This document shows, one piece after another, positions 5,492 through 63,505 of a stretch of 64,000 nucleotides of DNA. Positions within the stretch are counted from its first letter, which is position 1, and each line of letters starts with the position of its first letter. The translations under genes and the position numbers were made by a program. The DNA comes from Escherichia phage SF. Location: the sequence record MH359124, one strand, 5' to 3'. The notes under the pieces were generated by a model. The model was not told where the DNA came from and made no database searches. It was given only the letters and a program-made list of their open reading frames with translations.

Positions 5492-5521
5492 GTTTACATC
5501 TTCCTCTAGGCATGATATGAT
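5492..5521 (+). promoter_or_regulatory. Early sigma70-type promoter
   Basis: GTTTAC, 18-nt spacer, TATGAT; drives ORF 5551. Confidence 0.55.
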
Positions 5522-5550
5522 GTACTTACACAAACCAAGAGGAAAACATT

Positions 5551-5925
5551 ATGAATATGTCTCAAGCAATTTTTACTGCAATCACCGAAAACACAACTGT
5601 TGAAGTAGTTTCTCCGCTGGCAACCTACGTTATTCTTGCTCCTAAAACTATTGTATCTCGTATGGAAAACATGGGCAAACGTATCGTACAAATTGTTGGA
5701 GCTGGAAATCAAAAACTTGATTATCTGCGAACCATCAAAGCTTATGAACATTTCCAACTCGAAAAAGGTTCTCCTATCCAGGTAGAACTCGTAAATGGTG
5801 ATATCGTTCGAGCAATGTTCCATCATTTCTATGCATTGAATGACCCATCTAAAGCTGTTCGTTTAATTGCATACGACGCAAACCAAACCGAAATCAACGC
5901 AGATATATCTAAATTACATTTTTAA
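5551..5925 (+). CDS. Hypothetical protein
   Basis: 124-aa ORF with own early promoter and SD; no T4 counterpart recognised between 41 and dmd. Confidence 0.6.
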   Translation: MNMSQAIFTAITENTTVEVVSPLATYVILAPKTIVSRMENMGKRIVQIVGAGNQKLDYLRTIKAYEHFQLEKGSPIQVELVNGDIVRAMFHHFYALNDPSKAVRLIAYDANQTEINADISKLHF

Positions 5926-5954
5926 GTTTACTTCTCCAGTAGTTGTGTTATGAT
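5926..5954 (+). promoter_or_regulatory. Early promoter with stem-loop (PeSL-like)
   Basis: GTTTAC, 17 nt, TATGAT; -10 enclosed by IR CCAGTAGTTG/CAACTACTGG (5936..5972); drives ORF 5981. Confidence 0.65.
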
Positions 5955-5980
5955 AGACCTATCAACTACTGGAGAACAAA

Positions 5981-6298
5981 ATGAAAACCATCGACTGTAA
6001 AGCAGAATTTAAGATTTTTTATCACGGATCAAGTAGTTCAGCTAACATAGAAAATATGCTTTGTCCTCCTGAGGAAACAGGAGTTCTGTCTGAAACTGGA
6101 CGTAAGAAAAACTTGGATCGTGTATTCTTTACTGAAGATATCGGTTTAGCAAAGATTTATGCAGGACGAGCAGCACGCTCTTGTGGAGGTGAACCACGTC
6201 TCTATCGAGTAATTTCTCCGGTAGACGTAGTTCAAATGAATAATACTAAAGGTGCTACAGTTTATCACGCTGAATGGGCATTTTGCGAGGAAATATGA
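5981..6298 (+). CDS. Hypothetical protein, possible minimal ADP-ribosyltransferase (Arr-like) fold
   Basis: 105-aa ORF; N-terminal FYHGS motif and later hydrophobic Y-x-V-x-SP segment reminiscent of Arr-family; weak, unverified. Confidence 0.55.
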   Translation: MKTIDCKAEFKIFYHGSSSSANIENMLCPPEETGVLSETGRKKNLDRVFFTEDIGLAKIYAGRAARSCGGEPRLYRVISPVDVVQMNNTKGATVYHAEWAFCEEI

Positions 6299-6483
6299 GC
6301 AAATTAACTAAAGTTACTTTTATCGGTTGGTTTAAAAGCGGCGAGATGTTCACTAAAGATATCATGTTATCAGGTGATCGCGAAGAAATCGAGTGGGTTG
6401 CGGTACAACTTGCCGAAGTGAACAACGCATTAGTTAAAGCATTTGTTAATGACGAGAAAGTTTTCGAAGCAGATTTTCGATAA
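6295..6483 (+). CDS. dmd: Dmd, discriminator of mRNA degradation (antitoxin against RnlA/LsoA)
   Basis: ORF track 6274..6483; start at ATG 6295 gives 62 aa; VTFIGWFKSGEMFTKDIM...ALVKAF closely resembles T4 Dmd. Confidence 0.75.
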   Translation: MSKLTKVTFIGWFKSGEMFTKDIMLSGDREEIEWVAVQLAEVNNALVKAFVNDEKVFEADFR

Positions 6484-6496
6484 TTTTAAAATAACC

Positions 6497-6526
6497 GTTT
6501 ACAAGCACCACATACTGTGTTACTAT
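6497..6526 (+). promoter_or_regulatory. Early promoter
   Basis: GTTTAC, 18 nt, TACTAT; drives lipoprotein ORF 6555. Confidence 0.55.
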
Positions 6527-6554
6527 CTTTCTATCAACTACAGAGGAAATTGAA

Positions 6555-6923
6555 ATGAAAAAATTAATCGCTTTAGCAATGGTATTTGGATTAACCGGAT
6601 GTGGTGCCCATGGCTTTATCCCTAATAACGTTGGCCAACTGATTTACAATCCGAATGTTAAACAGTATGAACAACCTAAAGTTGAAGTGGAAGACCCGGT
6701 TACTGTAGGTAATCGAATGATTCAAGCTGATGCTCATGCTCAACGTTATCGTGATTCTGATACTGTGGCTGTGTCAAAAGAACAACGCGTTAAAGAACAT
6801 TGCTTACAGGCTACTGAAATCGCATTCATTCGCTATGTTGAAACAACTGGTAAAGAGCCTACCCAGAAACAAATCGCAAATAACTACGTCCAGTGTATTG
6901 AACGTTTAAACAAATTTAATTAA
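6555..6923 (+). CDS. Putative lipoprotein
   Basis: 122-aa ORF; signal peptide with lipobox LTGC; own early promoter. Confidence 0.65.
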   Translation: MKKLIALAMVFGLTGCGAHGFIPNNVGQLIYNPNVKQYEQPKVEVEDPVTVGNRMIQADAHAQRYRDSDTVAVSKEQRVKEHCLQATEIAFIRYVETTGKEPTQKQIANNYVQCIERLNKFN

Positions 6924-6926
6924 TTG

Positions 6927-6956
6927 GTTTACGCCAAAGTTAAAACAAGATATTAT
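6927..6956 (+). promoter_or_regulatory. Early promoter
   Basis: GTTTAC, 18 nt, TATTAT; drives ORF 6985. Confidence 0.55.
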
Positions 6957-6984
6957 AAACATAACAAATCAAGAGGAAATTAAC

Positions 6985-7233
6985 ATGGAATTATTCGTAG
7001 CTAGTTCAGTAGCGGTTTTAATCGCAGGTATTGGTTCAATCATCATTTACATGTTGCCTTGGGTAATCGCACTTATTCGTGGCACAAAAAGCACAACAGC
7101 AATCTTCTTTGTATCTTTACTCTTTAACTGGACGATGATTGGTTGGATTGGAACTTTAATTTGGTCTATCGTTGCCGAAAAGAAATCTGCCCAGCAGCCT
7201 CAACAAGTAATTATTATTCGCGAAAAAGAATAA
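6985..7233 (+). CDS. Small two-TM membrane protein
   Basis: 82-aa ORF, two hydrophobic helices; own promoter. Confidence 0.6.
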   Translation: MELFVASSVAVLIAGIGSIIIYMLPWVIALIRGTKSTTAIFFVSLLFNWTMIGWIGTLIWSIVAEKKSAQQPQQVIIIREKE

Positions 7234-7237
7234 ACTT

Positions 7238-7267
7238 GTTTACATTATAGATGGACTATAGTATAGT
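7238..7267 (+). promoter_or_regulatory. Early promoter (PeSL-like)
   Basis: GTTTAC, 18 nt, TATAGT inside IR GGACTA..TAGTCC; drives sp. Confidence 0.65.
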
Positions 7268-7296
7268 AGTCCTATCAAATTAACTAAGGAGTTAAA

Positions 7297-7590
7297 ATGA
7301 AAAAGTTATCATTGGCAGCAATCTTACTTGCAGTATCATGTGCACCAGCTCCAGTTACGGCAGGTTATGATAAAGACCTCTGTGAGTGGTCAATGACTGC
7401 AAATCAAGAAGATGTTGAACAACAAATCTTCTCTGATATCATGAACATCACTAAACGAGACCGTCCTAATATGGTTAATAAAGTTGTTGAACAACTTAAG
7501 TCTGGCGGTATCATGCAGTACAATTATGTTTTGTATTGTGACCCTAATTTCGATAACAAAGATATCGTAACCGAAATCACAGGTGAATAA
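7297..7590 (+). CDS. sp: Spackle periplasmic protein (superinfection exclusion / lysozyme inhibitor)
   Basis: 97-aa ORF; signal peptide; GYDKDLCEWSMTA...SGG.MQYNYVLYCD matches T4 Sp. Confidence 0.8.
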   Translation: MKKLSLAAILLAVSCAPAPVTAGYDKDLCEWSMTANQEDVEQQIFSDIMNITKRDRPNMVNKVVEQLKSGGIMQYNYVLYCDPNFDNKDIVTEITGE

Positions 7591-11078: not shown

Positions 11079-11086
11079 ATAATTTA

Positions 11087-11122: not shown

Positions 11123-11152
11123 GTTTACAACCACTAAAAACTGTGTTAAGAT
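11123..11152 (+). promoter_or_regulatory. Early promoter
   Basis: GTTTAC, 18 nt, TAAGAT; drives ORF 11181. Confidence 0.5.
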
Positions 11153-11180
11153 ATTCTTACTTACTCAAGAGGAGAACAAT

Positions 11181-11408
11181 ATGTTAAATCGTTGGATTAA
11201 ACCTAATAACACATTAGGTGCTTTGATTGCTCAAGAAGTTTCGTTGAAATACGGTCTTGGATATTATGATGATGTAGTCGTACACTCGTTCATGATGGAT
11301 GGCGAAGACGTCAAATTTAATGCCGAAATCCGTTGGGACGATGGTGGTGTTCGTTTTGTTCGAGGAACAATTAATGCTTACGATGCTGAAGAAGTTGTTT
11401 GCTGTTAA
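11181..11408 (+). CDS. Hypothetical protein
   Basis: ATG 11181 after AGAGGAG; in-frame part of ORF 11112..11408. Confidence 0.55.
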   Translation: MLNRWIKPNNTLGALIAQEVSLKYGLGYYDDVVVHSFMMDGEDVKFNAEIRWDDGGVRFVRGTINAYDAEEVVCC

Positions 11409-12603: not shown

Positions 12604-12632
12604 GTTTACATTCCCTCCTCTCGTGTTATGAT
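12604..12632 (+). promoter_or_regulatory. Early promoter
   Basis: GTTTAC, 17 nt, TATGAT; drives the modB-like gene. Confidence 0.6.
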
Positions 12633-12659
12633 AGGCTTATCTTTAAATGGAGGTCTATC

Positions 12660-13241
12660 ATGACATGTCAATCTGAACTTCAAGAACGCGAATACCTAAC
12701 AAATCTGATTGATAGCAAATTCACCCGCCAAGAACAAAACATTCTCTGGGCTTGCACAGATTCTAAGGAAGACCCGGATTTCCACTATGAATTAGACCAT
12801 CTTGTTCGTAAGCATATGACTTCTACAGTACCAGTAGAACTCTACCGCGGTGTAACTCCAGAAGAAGTAGAACGTCTTTCCCTTCTTTCTGTTGGATGTC
12901 ATTGGTCTCCTGGACGAGTAACATCATTCACAACTGATTTCAGTACAGCTCGTCAATTCTCCGGGAGTTGGGAGTATCAGACGTACACTATTCTTAGTCT
13001 CAGGAATGCTCCATTCATTTTTGATTACTACCAAAACATGGTTAACATTGTACTTGCCGGAAAGAACCCTAAGCATGTTATGGAAGAAACACGTGTTGAC
13101 GTCCTAGATATGATTGAATCTGAACAAGAGTACATGGTCTCAGGTATCTCTAGATTTGAGATTGTGGAAATTGAAGACTTAGAATATGACCCTTTATCTC
13201 AGTTATACAAAATCATTCATTTAAAAATGTTGAATTTTTAG
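12660..13241 (+). CDS. modB: ModB-like ADP-ribosyltransferase (R-S-ExE type)
   Basis: 193-aa ORF; YRG, FTTDFSTA and EQEYMV motifs in R-S-ExE order; tandem paralog of next gene; synteny soc..modB-modA-srd. Confidence 0.55.
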   Translation: MTCQSELQEREYLTNLIDSKFTRQEQNILWACTDSKEDPDFHYELDHLVRKHMTSTVPVELYRGVTPEEVERLSLLSVGCHWSPGRVTSFTTDFSTARQFSGSWEYQTYTILSLRNAPFIFDYYQNMVNIVLAGKNPKHVMEETRVDVLDMIESEQEYMVSGISRFEIVEIEDLEYDPLSQLYKIIHLKMLNF

Positions 13242-13270
13242 TGTACAAACTCTTCCGACGATGATACTAT
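13241..13270 (+). promoter_or_regulatory. Early promoter
   Basis: GTGTAC, 18 nt, TACTAT; drives the modA-like gene. Confidence 0.5.
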
Positions 13271-13298
13271 ACTTTTATCAACCACAGGAGAAACCTAA

Positions 13299-13907
13299 AT
13301 GTTTATGCCGTATAATGAATGTGAAATTGAGGAAATGGTTCGACGTGCTCAATGCCTGGATTATCAAGATATGCTTCAGTACAAAATCGATGAGCAATTC
13401 AGTGACATTGAACAAAGTGTACTATGGCAGTGTATGGAAAACAAGCCTGATAGCATCCAACAAGATTTAAGTGCAATCGTTCGTAGAAATTGGTCTTCTT
13501 CAGTTCCTGAGACAATGTATCGTGGAATCTCTAAGAAAACTATGGCCACACTCGATGATAAAGGCATTGGTAGTATTATTAAATTTGACAGAGTAATGAG
13601 CTTCAGCCCAGTGTTCGGTGTAGCACGTAACTTTGCTTCATATAATTTTTACGGAACATTTAATATGTTCTGCATCAAAGATGCACCATTTGCTTTCAAC
13701 TTCCGTGAACATATGCTTAATATGATTCTGGCTGCACCATCTTGCGAGTTCAATGGAGCTTTCCCTGAAGCGACAAGACGGTCTAATGCTAGACTTATAT
13801 CTGACGAATGTGAATTTATGCTCCCTATAGGGACTACACTGCGTGTAGATTCTATTATTCAAGATGGACGTTATACAATCTGGAATCTGTCTATTGTCGG
13901 TTACTGA
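13299..13907 (+). CDS. modA: ModA-like ADP-ribosyltransferase (R-S-ExE type)
   Basis: 202-aa ORF; YRG, FSPVFGVA and ECEFML motifs; paralog of 12660..13241. Confidence 0.55.
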   Translation: MFMPYNECEIEEMVRRAQCLDYQDMLQYKIDEQFSDIEQSVLWQCMENKPDSIQQDLSAIVRRNWSSSVPETMYRGISKKTMATLDDKGIGSIIKFDRVMSFSPVFGVARNFASYNFYGTFNMFCIKDAPFAFNFREHMLNMILAAPSCEFNGAFPEATRRSNARLISDECEFMLPIGTTLRVDSIIQDGRYTIWNLSIVGY

Positions 13908-13981: not shown

Positions 13982-14010
13982 GTGTACACTACCTGAGGGC
14001 ATGATATTAT
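13982..14010 (+). promoter_or_regulatory. Early promoter (PeSL-like)
   Basis: GTGTAC, 17 nt, TATTAT followed by AGACCTATC; drives srd. Confidence 0.55.
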
Positions 14011-14059
14011 AGACCTATCAGCTAAATGACCTAACGTCCGTAAGACAGAGGAAAATATT

Positions 14060-14806
14060 ATGTTATCAAATAATAAAATTAACAAAATCAATCGTCGTCT
14101 TGACCACACCAGAGCTTCTGCGAAGAGACGCTCTAAGGATTTTAACTTAGATTTTAATTACCTTAAAAACATCCTTGATCAAAAGGTCTGCGCTTACTCA
14201 GGTGAATCTTTCAATAACTCTGTTGAAGGTGAGAAATTATCCTTAGAACGTTTTAATAACGATATCGGCTACATTAAAGGTAATGTTATCCCGGTTAAGA
14301 AAAAATATAACACGGCTCGTTCTGATTTAACATTAGAAGAACTTATTGATAAACGTGATGCCATTGCAAGACGTATCGCTAATCCTTCTGCCCGTAAAGT
14401 AGAGAAACTTAATCTCGACGAGAAGAAATGGGCCCAAATTAAAAAGGTTTATGGTACTATTTTAAAAATCCGAGCAAAACGTGAAAATCGTGTTAAGCAT
14501 ATGGCGAACATGATGAAAAATCAACCTTTATCTAACGAATCTAAACTTAGAATTGTTGCTTTGAAAGCACGCATTAATGGCTCACATCAAGCAGAAGGCC
14601 ATGAACTTACTAAACTCAACGTTCTTCTTAAAGGCTCTGACTGGAAAACTAAAACTAAATTAACTGACGCTGAATCGCTTTTCGATACATATGATAAAGT
14701 TATCCAAGGTCTGCAACGTTTTGAAAAGATCGGTTTCATTGGTAAATTAAAATTGAAACGTGGCTTACCACTTAGCGCATCATTATTCCAACTGATTAAA
14801 GGTTAA
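14060..14806 (+). CDS. srd: Srd-like protein
   Basis: 248-aa basic ORF at the T4 srd position (T4 Srd about 251 aa); assignment by synteny and size. Confidence 0.5.
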   Translation: MLSNNKINKINRRLDHTRASAKRRSKDFNLDFNYLKNILDQKVCAYSGESFNNSVEGEKLSLERFNNDIGYIKGNVIPVKKKYNTARSDLTLEELIDKRDAIARRIANPSARKVEKLNLDEKKWAQIKKVYGTILKIRAKRENRVKHMANMMKNQPLSNESKLRIVALKARINGSHQAEGHELTKLNVLLKGSDWKTKTKLTDAESLFDTYDKVIQGLQRFEKIGFIGKLKLKRGLPLSASLFQLIKG

Positions 14807-17122: not shown

Positions 17123-17152
17123 GTTTACAACCAAGGACGGTTGGAGTATAAT
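17123..17152 (+). promoter_or_regulatory. Early promoter
   Basis: GTTTAC, 18 nt, TATAAT; drives ORF 17184. Confidence 0.65.
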
Positions 17153-17183
17153 CTTTCTATCTTAACCAAACAGGAAAAACATT

Positions 17184-17678
17184 ATGAATATCAATACTAC
17201 GGCTACTTACATCCTGAAAGACGAAAAACAAATCAACTGGTACGGTGCTTCAGTGCGAGCTTATGAAAAGTTTTGTGAAATTTTAGGTGCCACTCAAGGT
17301 AATAGTTTCACTATTGTTAACTTCATTAAACAAGCTGAAGGCCCTTGGTTATTCTTAGAAATTAAAAATTCATATGGTACAATTTCTACTACTGCCATTC
17401 CAAGCACCGACTTTGAACTCTTGATTGAAGAAGTAGAACCCGTTAAAGACATCTGTATTGATATGGATATCGCTTGTATGTACGGTACTCTGATTAAGCA
17501 TATTGAGCCTACTGATTTATTGTGTAAATATGTTTCAATTCGACGCCCATTCGCTGGTCCAGTAAATGGATGGGTAACTGACCAATGGATTGAAGACGGT
17601 GTTGAACTTCTGAACGTTGTTCACGCAAGTGATTTTAGTGTAGTTCCACGTAGTGCTGTGGTTAATATCCTTAATTAA
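17184..17678 (+). CDS. Hypothetical protein, paralog family member A
   Basis: 164-aa ORF; C-terminal GWVTDQWIEDGVELLNVVHASDFSVVP shared with the two following ORFs. Confidence 0.6.
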   Translation: MNINTTATYILKDEKQINWYGASVRAYEKFCEILGATQGNSFTIVNFIKQAEGPWLFLEIKNSYGTISTTAIPSTDFELLIEEVEPVKDICIDMDIACMYGTLIKHIEPTDLLCKYVSIRRPFAGPVNGWVTDQWIEDGVELLNVVHASDFSVVPRSAVVNILN

Positions 17679-17680: not shown

Positions 17681-17710
17681 TTGTACATCCAAGGACGGAT
17701 GGAGTATAAT
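17681..17710 (+). promoter_or_regulatory. Early promoter
   Basis: TTGTAC, 18 nt, TATAAT; near-duplicate of the 17123 promoter (CCAAGGACGG.TGGAGTATAAT); drives ORF 17742. Confidence 0.6.
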
Positions 17711-17741
17711 GAATTCAATTTAACAAAGAGAGAGAGAAATT

Positions 17742-18197
17742 ATGATTACTATTGGTGAAATTAAGCGTGTATCAATTGCATCCCGGTCTAAAGCCGCAGG
17801 TCGTCTGGTTGAAGTTATCGGACTTCGCACAAATGGCATGGGACGTATTAAAGAAGTTAAAGTTCGAATCATTCCTAGTTTTGGACGTCAGGATACTCAG
17901 TACGCTTACGTAAGTCCTAAATTCTTGGAAACTCCTGTGAGCGCTCATTTTGCTTCCACTGAACCTAATGTACAGTTCAAATGGGCCCTTTGCAAAGGCG
18001 TTGAATTCCAGACTGATAAAGAATTTGACTTCATCGATGAATACGGTTATCCAAGCAAAACTGATACTATGTGTGGCTTCATTAGTGACCAATGGGTTGA
18101 AGATGGTGAAAAGTTATACAATATCGTATTCTTAGGTGACTTCCGAGTTGTTAAAGAATCTGAAATCACTCGCTATGTGTCTCCTCGTAAAGCTTAA
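17742..18197 (+). CDS. Hypothetical protein, paralog family member B
   Basis: 151-aa ORF; shares the N-terminal SIASRSKAAGRLVEV motif and C-terminal GFISDQWVEDG..LYNIVF motif with 18207..18626. Confidence 0.6.
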   Translation: MITIGEIKRVSIASRSKAAGRLVEVIGLRTNGMGRIKEVKVRIIPSFGRQDTQYAYVSPKFLETPVSAHFASTEPNVQFKWALCKGVEFQTDKEFDFIDEYGYPSKTDTMCGFISDQWVEDGEKLYNIVFLGDFRVVKESEITRYVSPRKA

Positions 18198-18630: not shown

Positions 18631-18659
18631 GTTTACTTCTCCTCTGGTTTTGATATTAT
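18631..18659 (+). promoter_or_regulatory. Early promoter (PeSL-like)
   Basis: GTTTAC, 17 nt, TATTAT flanked by IR CCTCTGGTT/AACCAGAGG; drives ORF 18686. Confidence 0.65.
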
Positions 18660-18685
18660 AACCATATCAACCAGAGGAGAATAAT

Positions 18686-19210
18686 ATGTTAGTTTACCGC
18701 GTAGAACGTAGTTTTTGTACTCAACGTGAATCATTACCAGGAATTGCTATCGAAGACGGTAAAGCCGTCAGAATTTGGGAAACCTCTTGGAATAAAGAAC
18801 CTCGTTCGCCATACGGTTGGTCGGGCACCGACAACTCTGAAGAAACATGGGAGTTCCTTGATAAGCATGGAATACTCTCAGGTAACTTCTACCATCATGG
18901 CGACAACTACAATGTCTCTAATCGTCCTACAGTAAATGAAGACAAACTCCTTGAACAAAATATCTTAAGATACTATAGAATTGAGCACACATTTGAATTG
19001 AGTGAAGATTGGGCTCAAGGGTTCTATTTTGGATTTGAAAGTGTTGACGCGGTTTATGCATGGTTTGATGACCAGGTGGATGTTGAACTCTTGAAAGCTA
19101 AAGGATACTACATAGCGGTCTATGAAGCACCTGATTTCATCCTCGGAAGTTGTCAATTAATGTTTAGACGTTCATTGGCAGAACAAGTTGATTTTATTTT
19201 GCTAAAATGA
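18686..19210 (+). CDS. Hypothetical protein
   Basis: 174-aa ORF with own promoter and AGAGGAG SD. Confidence 0.6.
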   Translation: MLVYRVERSFCTQRESLPGIAIEDGKAVRIWETSWNKEPRSPYGWSGTDNSEETWEFLDKHGILSGNFYHHGDNYNVSNRPTVNEDKLLEQNILRYYRIEHTFELSEDWAQGFYFGFESVDAVYAWFDDQVDVELLKAKGYYIAVYEAPDFILGSCQLMFRRSLAEQVDFILLK

Positions 19211-19240
19211 TGTACAACAACTATGGTCTATGATACTATA
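19210..19240 (+). promoter_or_regulatory. Early promoter candidate (PeSL-like)
   Basis: ATGTAC and TGATACTATAGACC inside IR GGTCTAT..ATAGACC; spacing non-ideal; drives ORF 19268. Confidence 0.4.
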
Positions 19241-19267
19241 GACCTATCAAAACAAGAGGAGAATATT

Positions 19268-19495
19268 ATGAAACGTCAAATCATTAAAAACGTAACTACT
19301 GATTCAAACATCGATGAGTTTGAAGATGTTCTGTTTAATCCTGATTTAGTTGTTGTACAGAAAAACTGGACCGAATTTTTATGCTACACTGAAGTGGTTT
19401 ACGTTTACGAAAAACTCGGCGATGAAATGCCTATCTATGGTATCTTCCGTGAAATCACTGAAAATGGTACAACTTATTGGAAGGAAACTTACTAA
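19268..19495 (+). CDS. Hypothetical protein
   Basis: In-frame ATG of ORF 19223..19495 after AGAGGAG. Confidence 0.5.
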
Positions 19496-27837: not shown

Positions 27838-27868
27838 GTTTACAACTAAGTAGGACTATGATACAGTA
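27838..27868 (+). promoter_or_regulatory. Early promoter (PeSL-like)
   Basis: GTTTAC then TAGGACTATGATACAGTAGTCCTATC palindrome; -10 degenerate; drives ORF 27894. Confidence 0.45.
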
Positions 27869-27893
27869 GTCCTATCTAAAAGAGGATAGCATC

Positions 27894-28157
27894 ATGAAAT
27901 TTAAATTTTTCTACGCAAAACATAAAGTAACAGGCGAATTTGTTTCAATGTACAACACCGCAGATGATGAAGGGATGATTTATACCCATTTAGGCCTATC
28001 TCATTGGGACTCAGACGTGCCTTATATGTCATCTGAAGCCGAAATAACTCGTCTGGTTAATGGACATATGAACGACCATTTTAGTGTTATTCTTTCTAAA
28101 GACCTTAAAGAGGTTATCAACAAAGGATATATGGAACTCGCGGAAGTTGAGATATGA
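27894..28157 (+). CDS. Hypothetical protein
   Basis: 87-aa ORF with own promoter. Confidence 0.55.
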   Translation: MKFKFFYAKHKVTGEFVSMYNTADDEGMIYTHLGLSHWDSDVPYMSSEAEITRLVNGHMNDHFSVILSKDLKEVINKGYMELAEVEI

Positions 28158-28346: not shown

Positions 28347-28376
28347 GTTTACAACACAGTAGGATTATGGTATAGT
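28347..28376 (+). promoter_or_regulatory. Early promoter (PeSL-like)
   Basis: GTTTAC, 18 nt, TATAGT inside TAGGATTATGGTATAGTAGTCCTATC; drives ORF 28405. Confidence 0.65.
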
Positions 28377-28404
28377 AGTCCTATCAAAACACGAGGAAAA
28401 CAAA

Positions 28405-28605
28405 ATGGCTAAGCTTTTTAAAGATGTTGAAATTGGTGAAAAATTTGTCCTGAATAATGGTCAGCAGCTTATTCGTGTAGCTTCTATAGCCGGACAAACT
28501 CATAACTGCATAGCCCCAACGTGTTGGACCCGATTCTTTATTGAGGATGACACCGAATGTTTAACTGTTGAAGAGCTTTTTGAACGTTCTGATATAACCG
28601 AATAA
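28405..28605 (+). CDS. Hypothetical protein
   Basis: 66-aa ORF with own promoter. Confidence 0.55.
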   Translation: MAKLFKDVEIGEKFVLNNGQQLIRVASIAGQTHNCIAPTCWTRFFIEDDTECLTVEELFERSDITE

Positions 28606-30916: not shown

Positions 30917-30945
30917 GTTTACTTTTGCTTCAAACATGATATTAT
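30917..30945 (+). promoter_or_regulatory. Early/middle promoter cassette
   Basis: GTTTAC, 17 nt, TATTAT, with embedded TTGCTTCA MotA-box-like element; drives the motA.1-like gene. Confidence 0.65.
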
Positions 30946-30984
30946 AGACCTATCAAAACAAAACAACCAAATTGGAGAAATAAA

Positions 30985-31200
30985 ATGTCTAAAATGAAAT
31001 TAACCCAAAACACAACTACTCGTTTCGGTAAAGTTAAACCTGGTATGAATGCTCCCCGTAAAGCACTTGTTGAAGAATTAAATTTCTTAGAAGTTGAAAT
31101 CAATTCTTTAGTGGTTCGCGGTTCAAATGGACATCATTTAGAAAAGCTTCGTTCTAAAAAGGCAAAACTTATTGGCCTTATTAAAGAAATGAGTTTGTAA
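30985..31200 (+). CDS. MotA.1-like small basic protein
   Basis: 71-aa ORF between 52 and motA. Confidence 0.55.
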   Translation: MSKMKLTQNTTTRFGKVKPGMNAPRKALVEELNFLEVEINSLVVRGSNGHHLEKLRSKKAKLIGLIKEMSL

Positions 31201-31238: not shown

Positions 31239-31267
31239 GTTTACTTTTGCTTCAAACGTGATATTAT
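31239..31267 (+). promoter_or_regulatory. Early/middle promoter cassette
   Basis: Near-identical copy of the 30917 cassette; drives motA. Confidence 0.65.
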
Positions 31268-31304
31268 AGACCTATCAAAACAAATACTAATTTGGAGAAA
31301 TAAA

Positions 31305-44629: not shown

Positions 44630-44659
44630 ATTTACGCTTTCGAACTAGTATGTTACTAT
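44630..44659 (+). promoter_or_regulatory. Early-type promoter candidate for rnh
   Basis: ATTTAC, 18 nt, TACTAT; overlaps a CGCTTT MotA-like element. Confidence 0.4.
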
Positions 44660-44692
44660 GATCTAAGTTGACTAACTGAACAAGAGGTTCAT

Positions 44693-45610
44693 ATGGATTT
44701 AGAAATGATGTTGGATGAAGATTACAAAGAAGGTATTGCACTTGCTGATTTTAGTAACATTGCATTAGCAGCCGCATTAAACAACTTTGAAGACGGCGAT
44801 AAAATTACTGTTCCGATGGTTCGACATGTAATCTTGAATTCAATTCGTAAAAACGTAGTTATGTTCCGTAAGCAAGGCTATACAAAATTTGTATTGTGTA
44901 TGGATAATGCTACTTCAGGTTATTGGCGACGCGACTTTGCTTACTATTACAAGAAAAATCGTAAAACTGATCGTGAAGCTTCAAAGTGGGATTGGGAAGG
45001 ATATTTTACTGCACTTCATCAAGTCGTTGATGAGATTAAGAAATACATGCCATACGTTGTAATGGATATCGACAAGTATGAAGCGGATGACCATATCGGT
45101 GTATTAACTAAATATTTGTCATTAGCTGGACATAAGGTATGTATTGTTGCATCAGATGGTGACTTTACACAATTACACAAATATCCTAACGTTAAACAGT
45201 GGTCGCCGCCACAGAAAAAATGGGTTAAAATTAAGAACGGTTCTGCTGAAATTGATTGCATGACTAAAATTCTTAAAGGTGACCGTAAAGACGGCGTTGC
45301 ATCTGTTCGAGTTCGCGGCGACTTCTGGTTTACCAGAGTTGATGGTGAACGAACTCCGAGCATGAAAACAACGATTATTGAAGCGATTGCTAATGACCGT
45401 TCTCAAGCCGAAGTATTATTAAGTGCAGAAGAATATAAACGGTATCAAGAAAATTTGGTTCTCATTGATTTTGATTATATCCCTGATAATATTGCTTCAA
45501 CCATTATAGAGTATTATAACTCATATAAACAACAACCTAAAGGCAAGATTTATTCATACTTTGTAAAATCTGGTCTTTCTAAATTAACAAGTGTAATTAA
45601 CGAATTCTGA
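44693..45610 (+). CDS. rnh: RNase H (5'-3' exonuclease, FEN family)
   Basis: 305-aa ORF, same length as T4 RNase H; synteny. Confidence 0.9.
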   Translation: MDLEMMLDEDYKEGIALADFSNIALAAALNNFEDGDKITVPMVRHVILNSIRKNVVMFRKQGYTKFVLCMDNATSGYWRRDFAYYYKKNRKTDREASKWDWEGYFTALHQVVDEIKKYMPYVVMDIDKYEADDHIGVLTKYLSLAGHKVCIVASDGDFTQLHKYPNVKQWSPPQKKWVKIKNGSAEIDCMTKILKGDRKDGVASVRVRGDFWFTRVDGERTPSMKTTIIEAIANDRSQAEVLLSAEEYKRYQENLVLIDFDYIPDNIASTIIEYYNSYKQQPKGKIYSYFVKSGLSKLTSVINEF

Positions 45611-47925: not shown

Positions 47926-47954
47926 GTTTACTTCTTCCCTAGATGTGATATTAT
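47926..47954 (+). promoter_or_regulatory. Early promoter (PeSL-like)
   Basis: GTTTAC, 17 nt, TATTAT; drives ORF 47984. Confidence 0.65.
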
Positions 47955-47983
47955 AGTTCTATCAACAACATGAGGAAATCAAA

Positions 47984-48376
47984 ATGGAAATCGGAAAATC
48001 TTATATCATTAACCCTTTGTTTAAAGACGACTTTGTTCAAGAAGCGCCACACAATAACGCTAAGATGTTAAAATTGATTGAACTCCATGGGCCTAGTTTT
48101 GTTGTAAACGGAATGGAACCTGATTATGATAGCGATACGCCAAACGTAGTAAGTGTAACTATGGAAGACGGTACTGTATGTTCTGCCGCTGGTGAAATTG
48201 AAACTTATTTTGAGATTTATTATGATGAGTTCAAATACTTTACTGAGGTAGATTTAGTAAAGTCTCAACCTACTAACAAAGGTATAGCTTTAGGTGTAAC
48301 AAAAATACATTGTATCGTAGATGAAACCAACGTCGACGAAATCATCAAACTTTTGCAAAAAACTTTTAAAAAGTAG
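47984..48376 (+). CDS. Hypothetical protein (frd.x region)
   Basis: 130-aa ORF with own promoter. Confidence 0.6.
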   Translation: MEIGKSYIINPLFKDDFVQEAPHNNAKMLKLIELHGPSFVVNGMEPDYDSDTPNVVSVTMEDGTVCSAAGEIETYFEIYYDEFKYFTEVDLVKSQPTNKGIALGVTKIHCIVDETNVDEIIKLLQKTFKK

Positions 48377-48405
48377 TTTATAACAAGATAGGGCTATGTT
48401 ATAGT
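48376..48405 (+). promoter_or_regulatory. Early promoter (PeSL-like)
   Basis: GTTTAT, 18 nt, TATAGT inside IR TAGGGCTAT..ATAGTAGCCCTA; drives ORF 48440. Confidence 0.6.
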
Positions 48406-48439
48406 AGCCCTATCAAATAAAAGTAAAGAGGAGAATAAA

Positions 48440-49622
<1,183 letters not shown>

Positions 49623-54354: not shown

Positions 54355-54765
54355 ATGAAAGATATTGCCGCCGAATATTCCTTTATTAAATATACAGAAT
54401 TGGAGCTATTAGAAGATGCAACAATTAAAACAGTTGATGTCCCTAATAAGAAAAATGTCATATACGCTATTGCTATAGATGACGAGCTTGTGTATATTGG
54501 TAAAACCAAGAATTTAAAGAAACGCATTAACTATTATCGAACAGCCATAAATCGAAAAGACCAGACTTCAGATTCAAGAAAATCACTTATGATTTTGGAT
54601 GCCTTAATGCAAGGCAAAAAGGTTGAATTCTGGGCCCGCCAATGTTTTGACCTTTCAGTCACCAACGAACTTGGTTCAATGACTATCGCAACAATGGACC
54701 TTGAAGAACCGCTTTTTATCAAAAAGTTCAACCCGCCTTGGAATATCCAACATAAGAAAAAGTAG
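54355..54765 (+). CDS. denA: DenA endonuclease II (GIY-YIG-like)
   Basis: 136-aa ORF (T4 DenA 136 aa); VYIGKTKNLKKR motif; synteny after nrdB. Confidence 0.75.
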   Translation: MKDIAAEYSFIKYTELELLEDATIKTVDVPNKKNVIYAIAIDDELVYIGKTKNLKKRINYYRTAINRKDQTSDSRKSLMILDALMQGKKVEFWARQCFDLSVTNELGSMTIATMDLEEPLFIKKFNPPWNIQHKKK

Positions 54766-54794
54766 TTTACACGCCACAAGGATTGTGGTACAAT
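54764..54794 (+). promoter_or_regulatory. Early promoter
   Basis: GTTTAC then IR CCACAAGGATTGTGG and TGGTACAAT extended -10; drives rnlA. Confidence 0.5.
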
Positions 54795-54811
54795 TTAAAA
54801 AAACTAACTGA

Positions 54812-55945
<1,134 letters not shown>

Positions 55946-56007
55946 TGGTTTACAAACACCAAGGAAGGTGTTACTATGGTTTTTATCAACATCACGAGGA
56001 GAAAATT

Positions 56008-56508
56008 ATGAATATGCAATTGATTACTAACGATATGGTTGTGGCAGCATTTGGTGATTCTACAGATGGAATCCGGGTCTTTAAGAAAGGCCGTGCAGTT
56101 GGTTATCTTACTGACCTCCGTGTTACACTGGCCAAAAATCTTAAAAAGAAAGTAAAACAAAAAGAGTATTCCACCAGATACGCTGAAGAGAAACGCGAAG
56201 CGATGCCAGAAGCAGTTAATGCTATGGTAGAATTTCTTCAAAACAATTTGACTAAATATGACGCTAATGTGTTCATTAATATTAGTCAACCAAACGTACA
56301 TATCGCAGGTATAAAATTCTACATTATTTGCGACCCTCTTACCGACAAATTCAACCGCCTCGGAATTTCAAGTCCGTATCATACAGCAGAAGAGTTGTGT
56401 GTATTGTTTGAATCGTACAAAATCCAGTGTGATGGTCCGAAAACCGTTCTTATCAATGGATTATCCCGAGATGAAATCATTGAGATTATTAAAACATGCT
56501 TAAAGTAA
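56008..56508 (+). CDS. alc: Alc, inhibitor of transcription from cytosine-containing DNA
   Basis: ORF track 55945..56508; ATG 56008 after AGGAG gives 166 aa (T4 Alc 167 aa); synteny after 63. Confidence 0.7.
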   Translation: MNMQLITNDMVVAAFGDSTDGIRVFKKGRAVGYLTDLRVTLAKNLKKKVKQKEYSTRYAEEKREAMPEAVNAMVEFLQNNLTKYDANVFINISQPNVHIAGIKFYIICDPLTDKFNRLGISSPYHTAEELCVLFESYKIQCDGPKTVLINGLSRDEIIEIIKTCLK

Positions 56509-57139: not shown

Positions 57140-57354
57140 CTAAAGAACAGCATGAATACCTTAAAGGACTTATCTATGACTCTGAAATGGCGGCCATGAT
57201 TTACGGGCGACAGATTCAACGATTAGAATCTTTGCCTCCGACTAATGACCGCTTGTTAGTTCAGTCTCGTGCTAATCTGAAAAATGAATATCAGAATAAG
57301 TGGGCGGTAGCGACTAAAGCTCTTCATGAGTATATTGAATCTTTAGTAAAATAG
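57130..57354 (+). CDS. Hypothetical protein
   Basis: 74-aa ORF. Confidence 0.5.
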   Translation: MSMTKEQHEYLKGLIYDSEMAAMIYGRQIQRLESLPPTNDRLLVQSRANLKNEYQNKWAVATKALHEYIESLVK

Positions 57355-57383
57355 TTTACAAACTCTCGGGAGCAGAGTATAAT
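57354..57383 (+). promoter_or_regulatory. Early promoter (PeSL-like)
   Basis: GTTTAC, 18 nt, TATAAT inside IR GGAGCA..TGCTCC; near-duplicate of the 28608 cassette; drives ORF 57412. Confidence 0.65.
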
Positions 57384-57411
57384 GCTCCTATGGATAATTG
57401 AGGAAATCTAA

Positions 57412-57710
57412 ATGAAAACATTACTAGAGAATTACATCAAACGGTCTGATGAGTATATTGATATCTGTCGTGGAATGTCACTTGCCAATTATGACAAAGA
57501 TGCAGCAAAGGCACTAGATGAAGCAGGTAAAGCTCTTCGTAAAGCGGCTAAAGAAAAAGGGTTGGATTTACAACAACTCAAAAGTCATATGATTAAATTT
57601 ATTTCTTCAAACGTTAGAAGTAAGTCAATTAATAAAAACGTTGCTGAAATTAATAAAGACCGTCGCGAGCATAACATTCGTATTCTTGAAACTTTCTTAG
57701 GAATAAAATA

Positions 57711-59477: not shown

Positions 59478-59507
59478 GTTTACAACACCGTAGAGTTGTG
59501 ATACTAT
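59478..59507 (+). promoter_or_regulatory. Early promoter (PeSL-like)
   Basis: GTTTAC, 18 nt, TACTAT inside IR GTAGAGTT..AACTCTAC; drives ORF 59536. Confidence 0.65.
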
Positions 59508-59535
59508 AACTCTACCAACAAATGAGGAAATAGAA

Positions 59536-59772
59536 ATGCTAAGTGAAAACCCAATTACAGTACACGAATTTCAGATTAAAGTAAAAGAATTTGCTCAAGC
59601 ACTCATCAATAAAGTGTCTGAACGTTTCCAAGATGCAACATTACGAGTTATTCAAGAATCTCCACGTTCTTTTCTCATAATCGTTAATCCTAAAGATGGT
59701 GACCAAATTACTAATCTTAAATTAGGCAGTGATGGTCTTGTTGAAGCAACTCGAGTATATGGAACACTATAA
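59536..59772 (+). CDS. Hypothetical protein
   Basis: 78-aa ORF with own promoter. Confidence 0.5.
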   Translation: MLSENPITVHEFQIKVKEFAQALINKVSERFQDATLRVIQESPRSFLIIVNPKDGDQITNLKLGSDGLVEATRVYGTL

Positions 59773-61821: not shown

Positions 61822-62154
61822 ATGTCTGAAGTACAACTCCCAATTCGTGCTGTTGGTGAATATGTCATTCTGGTTTCTGAACCCGCTCAAGCAGGTGATG
61901 AAGAAGTTACCGAATCAGGACTTGTGATTGGTAAACGTGTTCAAGGTGAAGTTCCTGAACTATGTGTAGTTCATTCTGTAGGTCCTGATGTTCCTGAAGG
62001 TTTTGTTGAAGTCGGTGATTTGACTCCACTACCAGTTGGACAAATTCGAAATGTTCCGCATCCATTTGTGGCTTTAGGTCTTAAACAACCTAAAGAAATT
62101 AAACAGAAATTCGTAACATGCCACTATAAAGCTATTCCGTGCCTTTATAAGTGA
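61822..62154 (+). CDS. 31: gp31 co-chaperonin (GroES-like)
   Basis: 110-aa ORF; near-identical to T4 gp31 from memory. Confidence 0.9.
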
Positions 62155-62162
62155 TATAAATA
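62155..62162 (+). promoter_or_regulatory. Late promoter (TATAAATA) between 31 and rIII
   Basis: Exact TATAAATA directly after the gene 31 stop. Confidence 0.5.
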
Positions 62163-62278
62163 ACTATATGAAGAGAACACTCTTCTAAGCGGTAGCCTAC
62201 AACTGAGAGACTTGTCGAAAGAAGGTGAAATTCAGACGAACGTGGCTACTAAATATTATCTCGAATTGAGACTTTAAA

Positions 62279-62527
62279 ATGATTAAACAATTACAACACG
62301 CTCTTGAACTGCAACGCAACGCATGGAATAACGGTCATGAAAACTATGGTGCATCCATTGATGTTGAAGCCGAAGCTCTTGAAATCCTGCGTTATTTCAA
62401 ACATCTGAATCCTGCTCAGGCTTCTTTGGCCGCTGAACTGGAAGCTAAAGATGAATTGAAATATGCTAAGCCTCTGGCTTCTGCCGCACGTAAAGCAGTT
62501 CGTCATTTTGTTATTACCCTTAAGTAA
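62279..62527 (+). CDS. rIII: rIII lysis inhibition accessory protein
   Basis: 82-aa ORF, T4 rIII length; synteny after 31. Confidence 0.85.
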   Translation: MIKQLQHALELQRNAWNNGHENYGASIDVEAEALEILRYFKHLNPAQASLAAELEAKDELKYAKPLASAARKAVRHFVITLK

Positions 62528-62605
62528 GTTAAATCGAGGAGCCGTCGAATTGTCTGATTAATGATTTGCGAATCATTATAGTTTTAAGACCCCAACAATT
62601 TTACG

Positions 62606-62634
62606 GTGTACCTCTTGAATGTATTTTGTACTAT
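62606..62634 (+). promoter_or_regulatory. Early promoter candidate with long downstream leader
   Basis: GTGTAC, 17 nt, TACTAT; nearest downstream ATG with SD is 62792. Confidence 0.45.
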
Positions 62635-62791
62635 CACGCGTCAGAAAAAGGTTATCTGTCTAAGTCGTGGTTGGTATGATGACGAGGTTTATGGTTATCC
62701 TGTCGTTAAATATCCAAAACCTATGTTCCCCTTGAGGGCTTGCGCAGGCAATGTCAATAAGTCCTGCATTTTCATTTAAAGAGAATTTATA

Positions 62792-62971
62792 ATGGCAAAA
62801 CAAGCTAAAGCAAAGAAAGCAGTTGAAAAGAAAGTTGATGGTACCTCTAAACGCGCTGGATACAAGCGTGGGTCGAACTCTCGTATTAATCAAACAGTTG
62901 AGAAGATCATGCGCAGAGCACGTGCAGTTCTTCGAGATGATGCTTCTCGTTTTGGAAAGGTTGTTGCATAA
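62792..62971 (+). CDS. Small basic Lys/Arg-rich protein (59 aa)
   Basis: Below the track cutoff; ATG 62792; immediately followed by a strong terminator. Confidence 0.4.
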   Translation: MAKQAKAKKAVEKKVDGTSKRAGYKRGSNSRINQTVEKIMRRARAVLRDDASRFGKVVA

Positions 62972-62976
62972 TTTTA

Positions 62977-62998
62977 GGGAGACTTCGGTCTCCCTTTT
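62977..62998 (+). terminator. Rho-independent terminator
   Basis: GGGAGAC-TTCG-GTCTCCC then TTTT; identical hairpin to 47877. Confidence 0.8.
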
Positions 62999-63030
62999 GT
63001 GTGTTTAGGGCAGAAAAAGTTTAAAAAGAT

Positions 63031-63059
63031 GTTTACTCTCCTATAGGATGTGTTACTAT
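63031..63059 (+). promoter_or_regulatory. Early promoter (PeSL-like)
   Basis: GTTTAC, 17 nt, TACTAT; drives ORF 63101. Confidence 0.65.
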
Positions 63060-63100
63060 AGACTTGTACCACCTAATCAATAAAACAACCGGAGAATAAA

Positions 63101-63472
63101 ATGAACACTATCAATTTAAATGCTACAGTTAAATGCCATGACCATGATGGATATAAATCTCAAGTTGTTAACGAGTTACAGTGGATGGTTCGTTCAGTTC
63201 AAGGTGATGTAGTTTATTGTACAACTCCTGATGGCCCTTCAGACGATTTTTGTTATCATATCGAAATCGAAAACTTTTTCACTGGTGAAATTTACCGTCT
63301 GAATTCTACAGTTTATGGTTGTATTCGTTCTAAAACTTACGAAGACGAAGAGACTGGTTACTCTGAAGATGTTGTATGGTACGAAAATGCCAGAAATCGC
63401 GCAGAGGCATTAATCGAGAAGATTAAAGCAAAAGGTGTTATTGATTCAGCTAAGTGGACAAAAATCAAATAA
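63101..63472 (+). CDS. Hypothetical protein
   Basis: 123-aa ORF with own early promoter and GGAG SD. Confidence 0.6.
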   Translation: MNTINLNATVKCHDHDGYKSQVVNELQWMVRSVQGDVVYCTTPDGPSDDFCYHIEIENFFTGEIYRLNSTVYGCIRSKTYEDEETGYSEDVVWYENARNRAEALIEKIKAKGVIDSAKWTKIK

Positions 63473-63476
63473 AAAT

Positions 63477-63505
63477 GTTTACTTTGGTACAGGTTTTGTT
63501 ATTAT
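63477..63505 (+). promoter_or_regulatory. Early promoter (PeSL-like)
   Basis: GTTTAC, 17 nt, TATTAT inside IR GTACAGG..CCTGTAC; drives ORF 63547. Confidence 0.65.

Follow-up and report, generated by a model that had tools for sequence, protein, structure and literature searches.

Escherichia phage SF (sequence record MH359124) was analysed over a stretch of 64,000 nucleotides, from here on called the window and read on one strand, 5' to 3'. Its plus strand carries a series of early promoter cassettes between positions 5492 and 63505, in which a promoter with a GTTTAC-type -35 hexamer directly precedes a Shine-Dalgarno (SD) sequence and a start codon. About half of these cassettes contain an inverted repeat that is predicted to fold into a hairpin. 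Over 20 kb, the window has 97% identity with the Escherichia phages NHEP29, PhAPEC2 and ST0 and with about 150 further ones. Within the Straboviridae (Tevenvirinae), PhAPEC2 and RB69 belong to the genus Mosigvirus, and judged by these identities the window is that of a Mosigvirus, i.e. of an RB69-like T4-type coliphage.

The plus strand is the early-gene strand, with the gene order uvsX-40-41 ... 61-56-soc ... mod-srd-dda-dexA-motB-cef-goF-39-rIIA-rIIB ... 52-motA-asiA. The tail-fibre genes come next, on the minus strand, and no cassette occurs in this block (34-44.6 kb). After the tail fibres the plus strand resumes with rnh-59-32-frd-td-nrdAB-denA-rnlA-alc-pseT-cd ... 30.8-30.7. The cassettes sit in the 60-80 bp between successive small early genes and head ORF041c, ORF040c (together with dmd), imm.1, imm, sp, mrh.2, modB, modA, srd, motB.1, motB, motB.2, cef, ORF270c, ndd.1, an open reading frame (ORF) of 71 amino acids, motA, asiA, rnh, frd.2, frd.1, rnlA, alc, ORF231c, cd.2, 30.8 and 30.7.

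Of the ~98 early-strand genes, roughly 25-27 have a cassette in front of them. The original prediction, made from the sequence of the window, had placed them upstream of nearly every non-core ORF, which is an overstatement given this share of about one gene in four. It had also taken them as markers of the accessory parts of the window; the genes behind them are mostly conserved T4 early genes and not novel ORFs. The detailed comparison covered RB69, HY126, dhabil, PhAPEC2 and a part of T4. In RB69, 24 orthologous cassettes were found for 24 of 25 window cassettes, and T4 has recognisable orthologous cassettes before dmd, sp, mrh.2, modB, srd, motB.2, motB and cef.

Early promoter motif and cassette architecture

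The motif GTTTAC-N16-19-TATNAT has 12 exact matches in the window, 11 of them on the plus strand, whereas 0.39 were expected from shuffles. When one mismatch was allowed, ~25 plus-strand sites were obtained, which have sequence in common well beyond the two hexamers. A two-block position-weight matrix was built from these sites and both strands were scanned. The matrix returned 25 sites with scores of 24.7-49.9, every one on the plus strand, and the next best position on either strand scored 7.7. Two weaker, plausible members have a degenerate -35 hexamer. One is located before the motB-like gene (17681..17744, TTGTAC...TATAAT, score 6.0), the other is a promoter-like site before rnh (44630..44695, ATTTAC-N18-TACTAT, score 7.1), and they bring the total to 25-27. 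Hence, the predicted number of about 27 copies of a GTTTAC-N17/18-TATnAT promoter along this part of the window was correct.

The spacer between the hexamers has a length of 17 nt in 9 and of 18 nt in 16 of the 25 strong sites. The consensus reads AaAaA-N3-GTTTAC-N17/18 (ending in t.TG.)-TAttAT-Ag.CcTATCaA, followed by GAGGA or GGAG and ATG. It includes an extended -10 element (TGn, with 1.4-1.5 bits for TG) and an A-rich UP element at about -40 to -45. Every cassette lies directly 5' of an SD sequence and ATG, at a distance of 26-49 nt from the -10 hexamer. The SD predicted to follow the promoter is present throughout, but the exact trailing motif CCTATCAA occurs just 7 times, all within cassettes. 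A looser form, TAYNRT-N4-YTATC with YTATC at -1 to +4, is found in 15 cassettes (20 matches in the window versus 1.7 expected).

In 17 of the 27 cassettes, the upstream reading frame terminates no more than 6 nt from the -35 hexamer, or its stop codon has one base in common with the hexamer. The latter applies to six cassettes on the plus strand, where the stop codon takes in the first -35 base, as TAG-TTTAC at 12602-12604, 48374-48376, 54763-54765 and 57352-57354, as TAG-TGTAC at 13239-13241 (-35 hexamer GTGTAC) and as TGA-TGTAC at 19208-19210 (-35 hexamer ATGTAC). It follows that the UP element is coding sequence, and between two genes free variation is left only to the bases of the promoter spacer and of the 20-40-nt leader. 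The spacers of the window cassettes are mostly unrelated, with a median of 8 of 18 positions identical. By this measure the cassettes are independent instances of a functional consensus and not 27 copies of one element.

Early promoters of T4 are 'über' promoters made up of UP, -35, TGn and -10 elements with further consensus regions (Hinton 2010, PMC2988021). For RB69, 57 early promoters were predicted and the C-rich positions -3 to -1 were remarked upon (Nolan et al. 2006, PMC1524935). The window sites share with these promoters the UP element, the GTTTAC -35 hexamer, TGn, the -10 hexamer, the C-rich positions -3 to -1 and the location 5' of orthologues of T4 early genes. Because of this sequence agreement and the orthology to T4 and RB69, the sites are identified as sigma-70-dependent T4-type early promoters, by every criterion that can be applied at the sequence level. 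As far as the searched text of both papers goes, the T4 and RB69 sites are treated there purely as promoters, and inverted repeats or hairpins at early promoters are not mentioned.

Relation to stem-loop cassettes and gene exchange

Promoter early stem-loop (PeSL) cassettes consist of an upstream stop codon, an AT-rich region, a promoter, a stem-loop, an SD sequence and ATG (Arbiol et al. 2010, PMC2839356). They were described for RB49/phi1, T4/PST and KVP40/nt-1, and RB69-like phages are not among the published hosts (PMC2839356; Comeau et al. 2014, PMC4122927). In the commonest RB49 subclasses the stem-loop is placed 'between -35 and -10 or overlapping the -10' (PMC2839356). The same boundaries, i.e. 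the AT-rich region, the upstream stop codon and the downstream SD and ATG, are present in the window. PeSLs and the window cassettes also agree in their layout, in the presence of G-T pairs in the stems, in their clustering among small early genes and in the recombination of flanking copies by which the gene between them is lost or gained, in the window at the slot between gene 52 and motA.

Differences concern the promoter, which is the T-even GTTTAC type in the window but TTGACA in RB49 PeSLs, and the stems, which are of mixed sequence and copy-specific in the window but polyG/polyC in PeSLs. Unlike PeSLs, about half of the window promoters have no stem, and the window stems lack a U-tract. 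Some of the window stems bury the ribosome-binding site, whereas the word 'translation' does not appear in PMC2839356. The proposed match to PeSLs therefore stands for the cassettes with stems; it is not supported for the half without a stem nor, by sequence criteria, for the terminator feature. The stem-bearing cassettes are a known kind of element, largely already described, that is found here in a further genus.

The clearest case of gene exchange is the slot between gene 52 and motA. Here the ORF of 71 amino acids (30985-31200), which has no counterpart in RB69, is located between the cassettes 30917..30987 and 31239..31307, the latter heading motA. Both are on the plus strand and form a direct repeat of ~80 bp, in which only a few bases differ between GTTTAC and ATGTCTAAA, with 16 of 17 spacer positions identical. 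In RB69 a single cassette is present at this place, in which the flank upstream of the first copy is joined to the leader of the second. The one cassette of HY126 has instead the first copy's leader; its crossover differs from that of RB69 and thus its deletion was independent. Among Mosigvirus records the 71-amino acid ORF is present in ~74 and missing from ~75, and the two-cassette arrangement recurs in the Dhakavirus dhabil.

Six gene-sized differences were found between the window and RB69. One of these, the slot just described, is clearly cassette-mediated, two are partial or adjacent, and three are unrelated to cassettes. In RB69, an extra ORF245c lies behind cassette 47926, with a ~25-bp repeat of leader and SD (a 'half cassette') before frd.2. 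Gene 61.4 is missing from the window, and the UP element of cassette 6497 marks the end of this deletion, without a second cassette. The three differences at 10755-10794, 49279-49631 and 59781-60882 have no cassettes at their borders and speak against a general role in gene exchange. At the first of these, RB69 has ~190 bp between gene 56 and soc that are missing from the window. A further relation exists between the T4 motB cassette (L003, 7215) and the window cassette at 57354. Their spacers are identical at 16 of 18 positions, against a median of 7 of 18, and their stems differ in a compensatory manner (GGGACC/GGTCCC versus GGAGC/GCTCC), while the genes downstream are unrelated.

These relations have to be weighed against the possibility that the cassettes are plain promoters without a role in shuffling, which converged on a consensus and at which junctions fall as the intergenic space is mostly cassette. 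Such a view is in line with the unrelated spacers, with the synteny to RB69 and, largely, to T4, and with just one of six RB69 indels being clearly repeat-mediated. The stop codons abutting the -35 hexamer in 17 of 27 cassettes point the same way: since cassettes fill most of the intergenic space, their co-location with indels alone is weak evidence. Nevertheless, we consider this view unlikely, because the slot at motA shows two independent deletions with different crossovers and is polymorphic at about 50:50 in the genus, the T4 motB cassette recurs at a non-orthologous window site before an unrelated gene, and RB69 carries the half cassette before frd.2.

The PeSL type of recombination, in which the shared promoter and leader consensus would provide short homologies and recombination between copies would add or delete the intervening gene, is clearly supported by these alignments at the slot between gene 52 and motA and appears plausible at others. 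The modular gene shuffling ascribed to the cassettes is thus seen in two independent deletions at one slot, while three of the six RB69 indels have no relation to it. Likewise, comparison with related genomes gave cassette boundaries that coincide with gene gain or loss in one of six indels, with two partial or adjacent cases.

Hairpins in the cassettes

Each cassette was folded from behind the -35 hexamer up to the ATG, with dinucleotide shuffles as the null. A z-score below -2 was obtained for 11 and below -1.5 for 14 of the 25 cassettes, where fewer than 1 was expected; the folding tool gave values from -2.07 to -7.03 in twelve cassettes. Spacers pair better with their own downstream sequence than with swapped ones (-9.5 versus -6.5 +/- 0.5 kcal/mol; 0 of 20,000 permutations, p < 5e-5). 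The claim that the -10 hexamer lies inside a palindrome accordingly holds for about half of the cassettes, the other half having no significant palindrome. One helix in a fixed register for all cassettes with 18-nt spacers was considered and found to be weak, as 34 sequences had at least 7 of 10 pairs compared with 24.4 +/- 3.0. Free pairing tests were used because the register of the 5' arm differs between cassettes. Three classes were distinguished according to the position of the arms. All cassettes named in the following are on the plus strand.

In class A, a pyrimidine-rich anti-SD sequence directly after the -35 hexamer pairs with the SD and the adjoining leader bases. At 5926..5983, before the RB69ORF040c-like gene and dmd (17-nt spacer, -10 hexamer TATGAT at 5949-5954), the SD is buried by a 14-bp stem, TTCTCCAGTAGTTG/CAACTACTGGAGAA (-20.9 kcal/mol, z -5.7). 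At 18631..18688, before motB.2, this is achieved by a 13-bp stem, TTCTCCTCTGGTT/AACCAGAGGAGAA (-23.7 kcal/mol, z -7.0). A variant is located at 12604..12662 before modB, where the -10 hexamer TATGAT and the discriminator themselves form the 5' arm and pair with GGAGGTCTATCATG, which comprises the SD and the start codon (-13.1 kcal/mol, z -3.8). The modB helix is kept in T4 (-18.0 kcal/mol) and in a T4-like contig (L034, -19.3 kcal/mol), the differences being G·U/G-C exchanges. Weaker members of class A are the repeated cassettes 30917 and 31239 and those at 5492, 13241, 47926 and 63031. The first of the latter four, at 5492..5553 before the RB69ORF041c-like gene (-35 hexamer 5492-5497, 18-nt spacer, -10 hexamer TATGAT 5516-5521, ATG 5551), has the anti-SD TTCCTCT in its spacer, which pairs with the SD AGAGGAA (z -2.07). 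Weak anti-SD pairing occurs before modA (13241..13301, -35 hexamer GTGTAC, z -1.1) and frd.2 (47926..47986), and weak pairing before 30.8 (63031..63103).

In class B, the bases from -7 to +3 find their partners in the 3' portion of the spacer, so that the stem is closed around the -10 hexamer. The -10 hexamer lies in the loop before sp (spackle; 7238..7299, GATGGACTA/TAGTCCTATC, -11.1 kcal/mol, z -2.5) and before cef (19210..19270, -35 hexamer ATGTAC, GGTCTAT/ATAGACC, -9.5 kcal/mol, z -3.2). The RB69ORF270c-like gene is preceded by a 10-bp stem around the -10 hexamer (27838..27896, GUAGGACUAU/AGUAGUCCUA, -13.2 kcal/mol, z -3.3), which has a closing U·A pair at the top and a perfect core, TAGGACTA/TAGTCCTA. 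A 10-bp stem with a U·G pair, TAGGATTA/TAGTCCTA, is found before ndd.1/ndd (28347..28407, -10.9 kcal/mol, z -3.5). The stem before frd.1 (48376..48442, -35 hexamer GTTTAT) has 11 bp around the -10 hexamer, AGAUAGGGCUA/UAGCCCUAUC (-18.7 kcal/mol, z -6.3). It consists of a 10-bp Watson-Crick core, GATAGGGCTA/TAGCCCTATC, and one closing U·G pair, in the layout GATAGGGCTA-TGTTATAG-TAGCCCTATC. Before the RB69ORF231c-like gene (57354..57414), in the cassette homologous to the T4 motB promoter cassette, GGAGC/GCTCC encloses TATAAT (z -2.9). The stem around the -10 hexamer before the cd.2-like gene (59478..59538) is GTAGAGTT/AACTCTAC (-12.6 kcal/mol, z -5.0), and its RB69 counterpart has GTGGAGTT, yielding a G·U pair. 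Finally, 30.7 is preceded by a stem of 11-13 bp around the -10 hexamer (63477..63549, TTGGTACAGGT/ACCTGTACCAA, -18.3 kcal/mol, z -4.6).

In class C, both arms of a small hairpin and its AAGGA(C) loop are part of the spacer. Such a hairpin is found before motB.1 (17123..17186, AACC-AAGGAC-GGTT), the motB-like gene (ATCC-AAGGAC-GGAT), rnlA (54765..54823, CCACAA-GGA-TTGTGG, z -1.6) and alc (55948..56010, ACACC-AAGGA-AGGTGT, z -1.8). In the respective spacers, at 17129-17146, 17687-17704, 54771-54788 and 55954-55971, the stems AACC/GGTT, ATCC/GGAT, CCACAA/TTGTGG and ACACC/GGTGT covary, and the loop is SD-like. The spacers of the cassette at 17123 and its paralogue at 17681 are identical at 16 of 18 positions, and AACC/GGTT is replaced by ATCC/GGAT in a compensatory manner. 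Spacer hairpins of this type recur in cassettes from IMG/VR.

The cassettes without a class assignment lie before imm.1 (6497..6557, z +0.5, no significant hairpin, bordering the 61.4 deletion relative to RB69), imm (6927..6987, no hairpin), mrh.2 (11123..11183, no promoter-spanning hairpin), srd (13982..14062, -35 hexamer GTGTAC, no significant hairpin) and asiA (33735..33801, weak SD, no significant hairpin). In most cassettes, e.g. at 30937-30955, TGn and the start of the -10 hexamer form TGATA, to which the conserved TATCA at -1 to +4 is reverse complementary. A 5-bp consensus helix TGATA-N9-TATCA is therefore possible even without a copy-specific stem.

For a wider comparison, IMG/VR was scanned for GTTTAC-N17/18-TAYNNTAGNCCTATC, which gave 120 loci on T4-like contigs. 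A matrix scan of these loci together with the window and T4 yielded 270 distinct cassettes in 173 families; as the fetch pattern contains AGNCCTATC, this sample is enriched in one type of 3' arm. In the 173 families, cognate arms pair with -10.3 kcal/mol versus -7.3 kcal/mol for non-cognate ones (z = -17.6), and -15 kcal/mol is reached by 23% of the cognate but 2% of the non-cognate pairs. The N of AGNCC, the freely variable base of the 3' arm, is paired in 62% versus 43% expected, with GC, AT, TA and GT types. Compensatory arm pairs include GGACT/AGTCC, GGGCT/AGCCC, GGTCT/AGACC, TAAGGCT/AGCCTTA and GGGTA/TACCC.

Stems were identified with a score that prefers neither kind of transition mismatch, and mismatches were then counted in the unique ones. 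There are 23 of the G·U type against 4 of the A·C type (p = 3e-4), or 15 against 2 without the bases adjoining TGn; this excess comes from a small number of mismatches (27-46), in families that are not fully independent phylogenetically. Within families, substitutions per nt are about threefold lower in stems (0.074) than at other free positions (0.219), a comparison that is confounded by the overlap of the 3' arms with conserved discriminator and SD positions. Single transitions in stems preserve pairing in 22 and disrupt it in 10 cases. On this comparative evidence, the stems are probably under selection. The asymmetry points to pairing in the sense strand, most simply as RNA, because duplex DNA or a cruciform would treat G·T and A·C alike.

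No Rfam family reached its gathering threshold anywhere in the window. In T4, the cef promoter (L003, 6630) has a 13-bp stem, ATCAGTAGTTGAT/ATCAACTACTGAT, the core of which, CAGTAGTTG/CAACTACTG, it has in common with window cassette 5926, and the genes behind the two are unrelated.

The authors of the PeSL studies proposed that the stem-loops are terminators or attenuators for RNA polymerase arriving from upstream, so that a composite of terminator and promoter would isolate the gene. In support of this, one RB49 PeSL stem-loop cut lacZ expression as much as rrnB T1 (PMC2839356). The window stems, too, would form in sense RNA. They resemble intrinsic terminators in being intergenic hairpins of the sense strand, but they have no U-tract and a modest GC content. 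Downstream of the stems that enclose a -10 hexamer there is in no case a U-tract, but the A/C-rich CCTATCAAAACA. A terminator scan covering 60 kb of the window called no such stem on the plus strand, and the one cassette hairpin called there was the spacer hairpin at 55948, which is followed by GGTTTTT. Genuine terminators are separate from these stems. They have a GC-rich stem, a UUCG tetraloop and a T-run, several of the stems being near-identical (GGGAGACTTCGGTCTCCC), and are located on the plus strand at 5470-5488, 11086-11107, 20514-20529, 22395-22412, 27009-27024, 47877-47894, 54333-54346 and 62976-62995.

Four of these terminators lie 15-36 bp upstream of the cassettes 5492, 11123, 47926 and 63031. 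This favours a terminator-promoter composite at these sites and corresponds to the PeSLs of T4/PST, in which the stem-loop is located 'just upstream of the promoter' (PMC4122927). However, T4-type delayed-early expression needs read-through of the early units (PMC2988021). By the criteria of U-tract and terminator calling, the 'terminator' half of the PeSL concept is not supported in the window, and termination as the function of the stems is improbable. On the minus strand, the class B stems at 19244-19225, 27874-27851 and 48414-48387 were called terminator-like because the reverse complement of GTTTAC-AAC is T-rich. An antisense terminator reading of these three stems was rejected, since the sense G·U pairs become A·C in antisense.

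Alternatively, the inverted repeats could act in DNA, as cruciforms aiding promoter melting, as recombination sites or as operators of dimeric repressors. Palindromes over a -10 box are typical operators, and the -10 box is consistently in the loop here. In RB49, a crossover was mapped inside the loop of the stem (PMC2839356). A common operator or protein-binding palindrome was nevertheless rejected, as the arms differ between cassettes and covary. The 23:4 ratio of G·U-type to A·C-type mismatches is not expected from a cruciform or a double-stranded site, and the arms of class A, which are 17-20 nt apart and reach the SD, would be meaningless for promoter DNA. We regard an action in DNA as very improbable.

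Scarcely credible is the view that the palindromes are functionless products of templated mutation at quasi-palindromes or of small duplications, events that occur often when T4-type phages replicate: the templated correction of quasi-palindromes belongs to the classical mutational mechanisms of T4 and would give apparent compensatory changes without selection, but it predicts perfect, strand-symmetric palindromes, whereas the stems tolerate G·U and not A·C, change about 3 times slower than neighbouring free positions and, at modB, keep their pairing across genera despite sequence change.

Read-through transcripts and the ribosome-binding site

On the basis of spacing, the start site was set to the A of CCT-A-TC, 7 nt past the -10 hexamer, and all energies are predicted values. 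The 5' arms lie in the spacer or in the -10 box, always upstream of this +1. Therefore, a transcript from the cassette's own promoter would lack the hairpin, which could form in read-through RNA alone. From this geometry, together with the asymmetry between G·U and A·C, we infer that hairpin formation is confined to read-through transcripts.

The cost of opening the ribosome-binding site was computed for the region from -14 to +3 around the ATG. Its predicted mean is 2.6 kcal/mol in promoter-proximal transcripts. In read-through RNA it rises to 16.4 versus 1.4 kcal/mol in the proximal transcript at 5926, to 18.1 versus 4.9 kcal/mol at 12604 and to 20.8 versus 1.3 kcal/mol at 18631. Read-through costs of 6-10 kcal/mol were predicted for five further cassettes, 5492 (6.8 versus 2.5 kcal/mol in promoter-proximal RNA), 27838, 30917, 47926 and 55948. 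Pairing between SD and spacer was found in 54 of 143 families, compared with 32.8 +/- 3.5 for shuffled spacers. For class B, the ribosome-binding site is predicted to be more open than with shuffled upstream sequence in 7 of 7 cassettes tested, which is only suggestive of an insulating action of these stems.

Several results weigh against a role of the hairpins in read-through RNA. About 10 cassettes have no significant stem, including 6497, 6927, 11123, 13982, 17123 and 33735, and strong burial of the ribosome-binding site is confined to just three cassettes (5926, 12604 and 18631). Over all 25 cassettes, the opening energy did not differ between read-through and shuffled-upstream RNA (Wilcoxon p = 0.29), a result explained by the opposite actions of classes A and B. 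Moreover, swapped spacers gave 46.6 +/- 2.9 families with SD pairing, ~2.5 sd below the observed 54, so that part of the SD complementarity is a property of the consensus. With these points taken into account, it is probable that the cassettes are early promoters whose spacer and leader have in about half of the cases been shaped into an inverted repeat, with the -10 box and start site in or next to the loop, that the hairpins, of classes A, B and C, form in read-through RNA, and that, at the slot between gene 52 and motA, the cassettes take part in recombination of the PeSL type.

Release of the SD by translational coupling, i.e. by a terminating ribosome melting the 5' arm, was considered because stop codons abut the -35 hexamer. 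It was rejected, as the ribosome would reach just the first 3-4 nt of the arm at 5926 and none at 12604 and 18631.

A precedent for class A is provided by the T4 genes e, soc, 49, I-TevI and segB and by Aeh1 mobE. The promoter of these genes lies in the DNA of the 5' strand of the hairpin, so that its short transcripts leave the ribosome-binding site accessible (Uzan & Miller 2010, PMC3014915; Edgell et al. 2010, PMC2988022), while the SD or AUG is sequestered in long transcripts initiated upstream. By prediction, class A of the window matches this arrangement. In the e/soc/49/I-TevI type, however, the embedded promoter is a late one (middle in some cases) and the effect is a temporal delay, whereas in the window both the embedded and the upstream promoters are early. 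According to the folding model, class A would tie expression to the gene's own promoter and not delay it.

It is possible, and we propose it only tentatively, that the hairpins are RNA devices which make each early gene cassette independent of its context, with class A shutting and class B insulating the ribosome-binding site. Read-through copies of class A genes would be translationally closed, most strongly at 5926, 12604 and 18631. The genes concerned (ORF040c-dmd, modB, motB.2 and the weaker ones) would be translated from their own immediate-early promoter alone and fall silent after early shut-off. In class B, the upstream sequence would be locked in a self-contained stem and leave the downstream ribosome-binding site open whatever lies 5'. 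If so, the principle of e, soc and I-TevI, so far a few cases with late promoters, would become a general design rule of T-even early transcription units, and it would explain how cassettes can be shuffled without disturbing their neighbours.

What would go beyond the literature is the selection for pairing in sense RNA, the restriction of the hairpins to read-through transcripts and the closure of the ribosome-binding site in a subset, as deduced from alignments and predicted folds. If confirmed, these points would indicate how tandem genes with a promoter each can coexist in a densely packed phage genome without disturbing one another, and could provide natural insulator parts for synthetic operons; the current understanding of T4 gene expression is not overturned by them. 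For annotation, the cassettes are reliable boundaries of early transcription units in RB69-like phages, a group in wide use in phage therapy collections, and they flag slots where small accessory genes come and go.

Two of the RB69 differences without border cassettes contain genes on the plus strand. An ORF of 115 amino acids at 49275-49622, between frd and td, is missing from RB69, has no Pfam match and has junctions that are not at cassettes. An ORF of 330 amino acids at 59893-60885 sits in a 1.1-kb segment missing from RB69, between the cd.2-like gene and cd. It has a Pfam match to DAHP_synth_1 (PF00793, E 1.7e-74), to which DAHP and KDO8P synthases belong, and may be an auxiliary gene of sugar or aromatic-precursor metabolism. 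On the minus strand, the gp38/gp37 adhesin segments at 34756-35219 and 36141-36740 have no megablast alignment with RB69, in keeping with the variability expected for host-range determinants.

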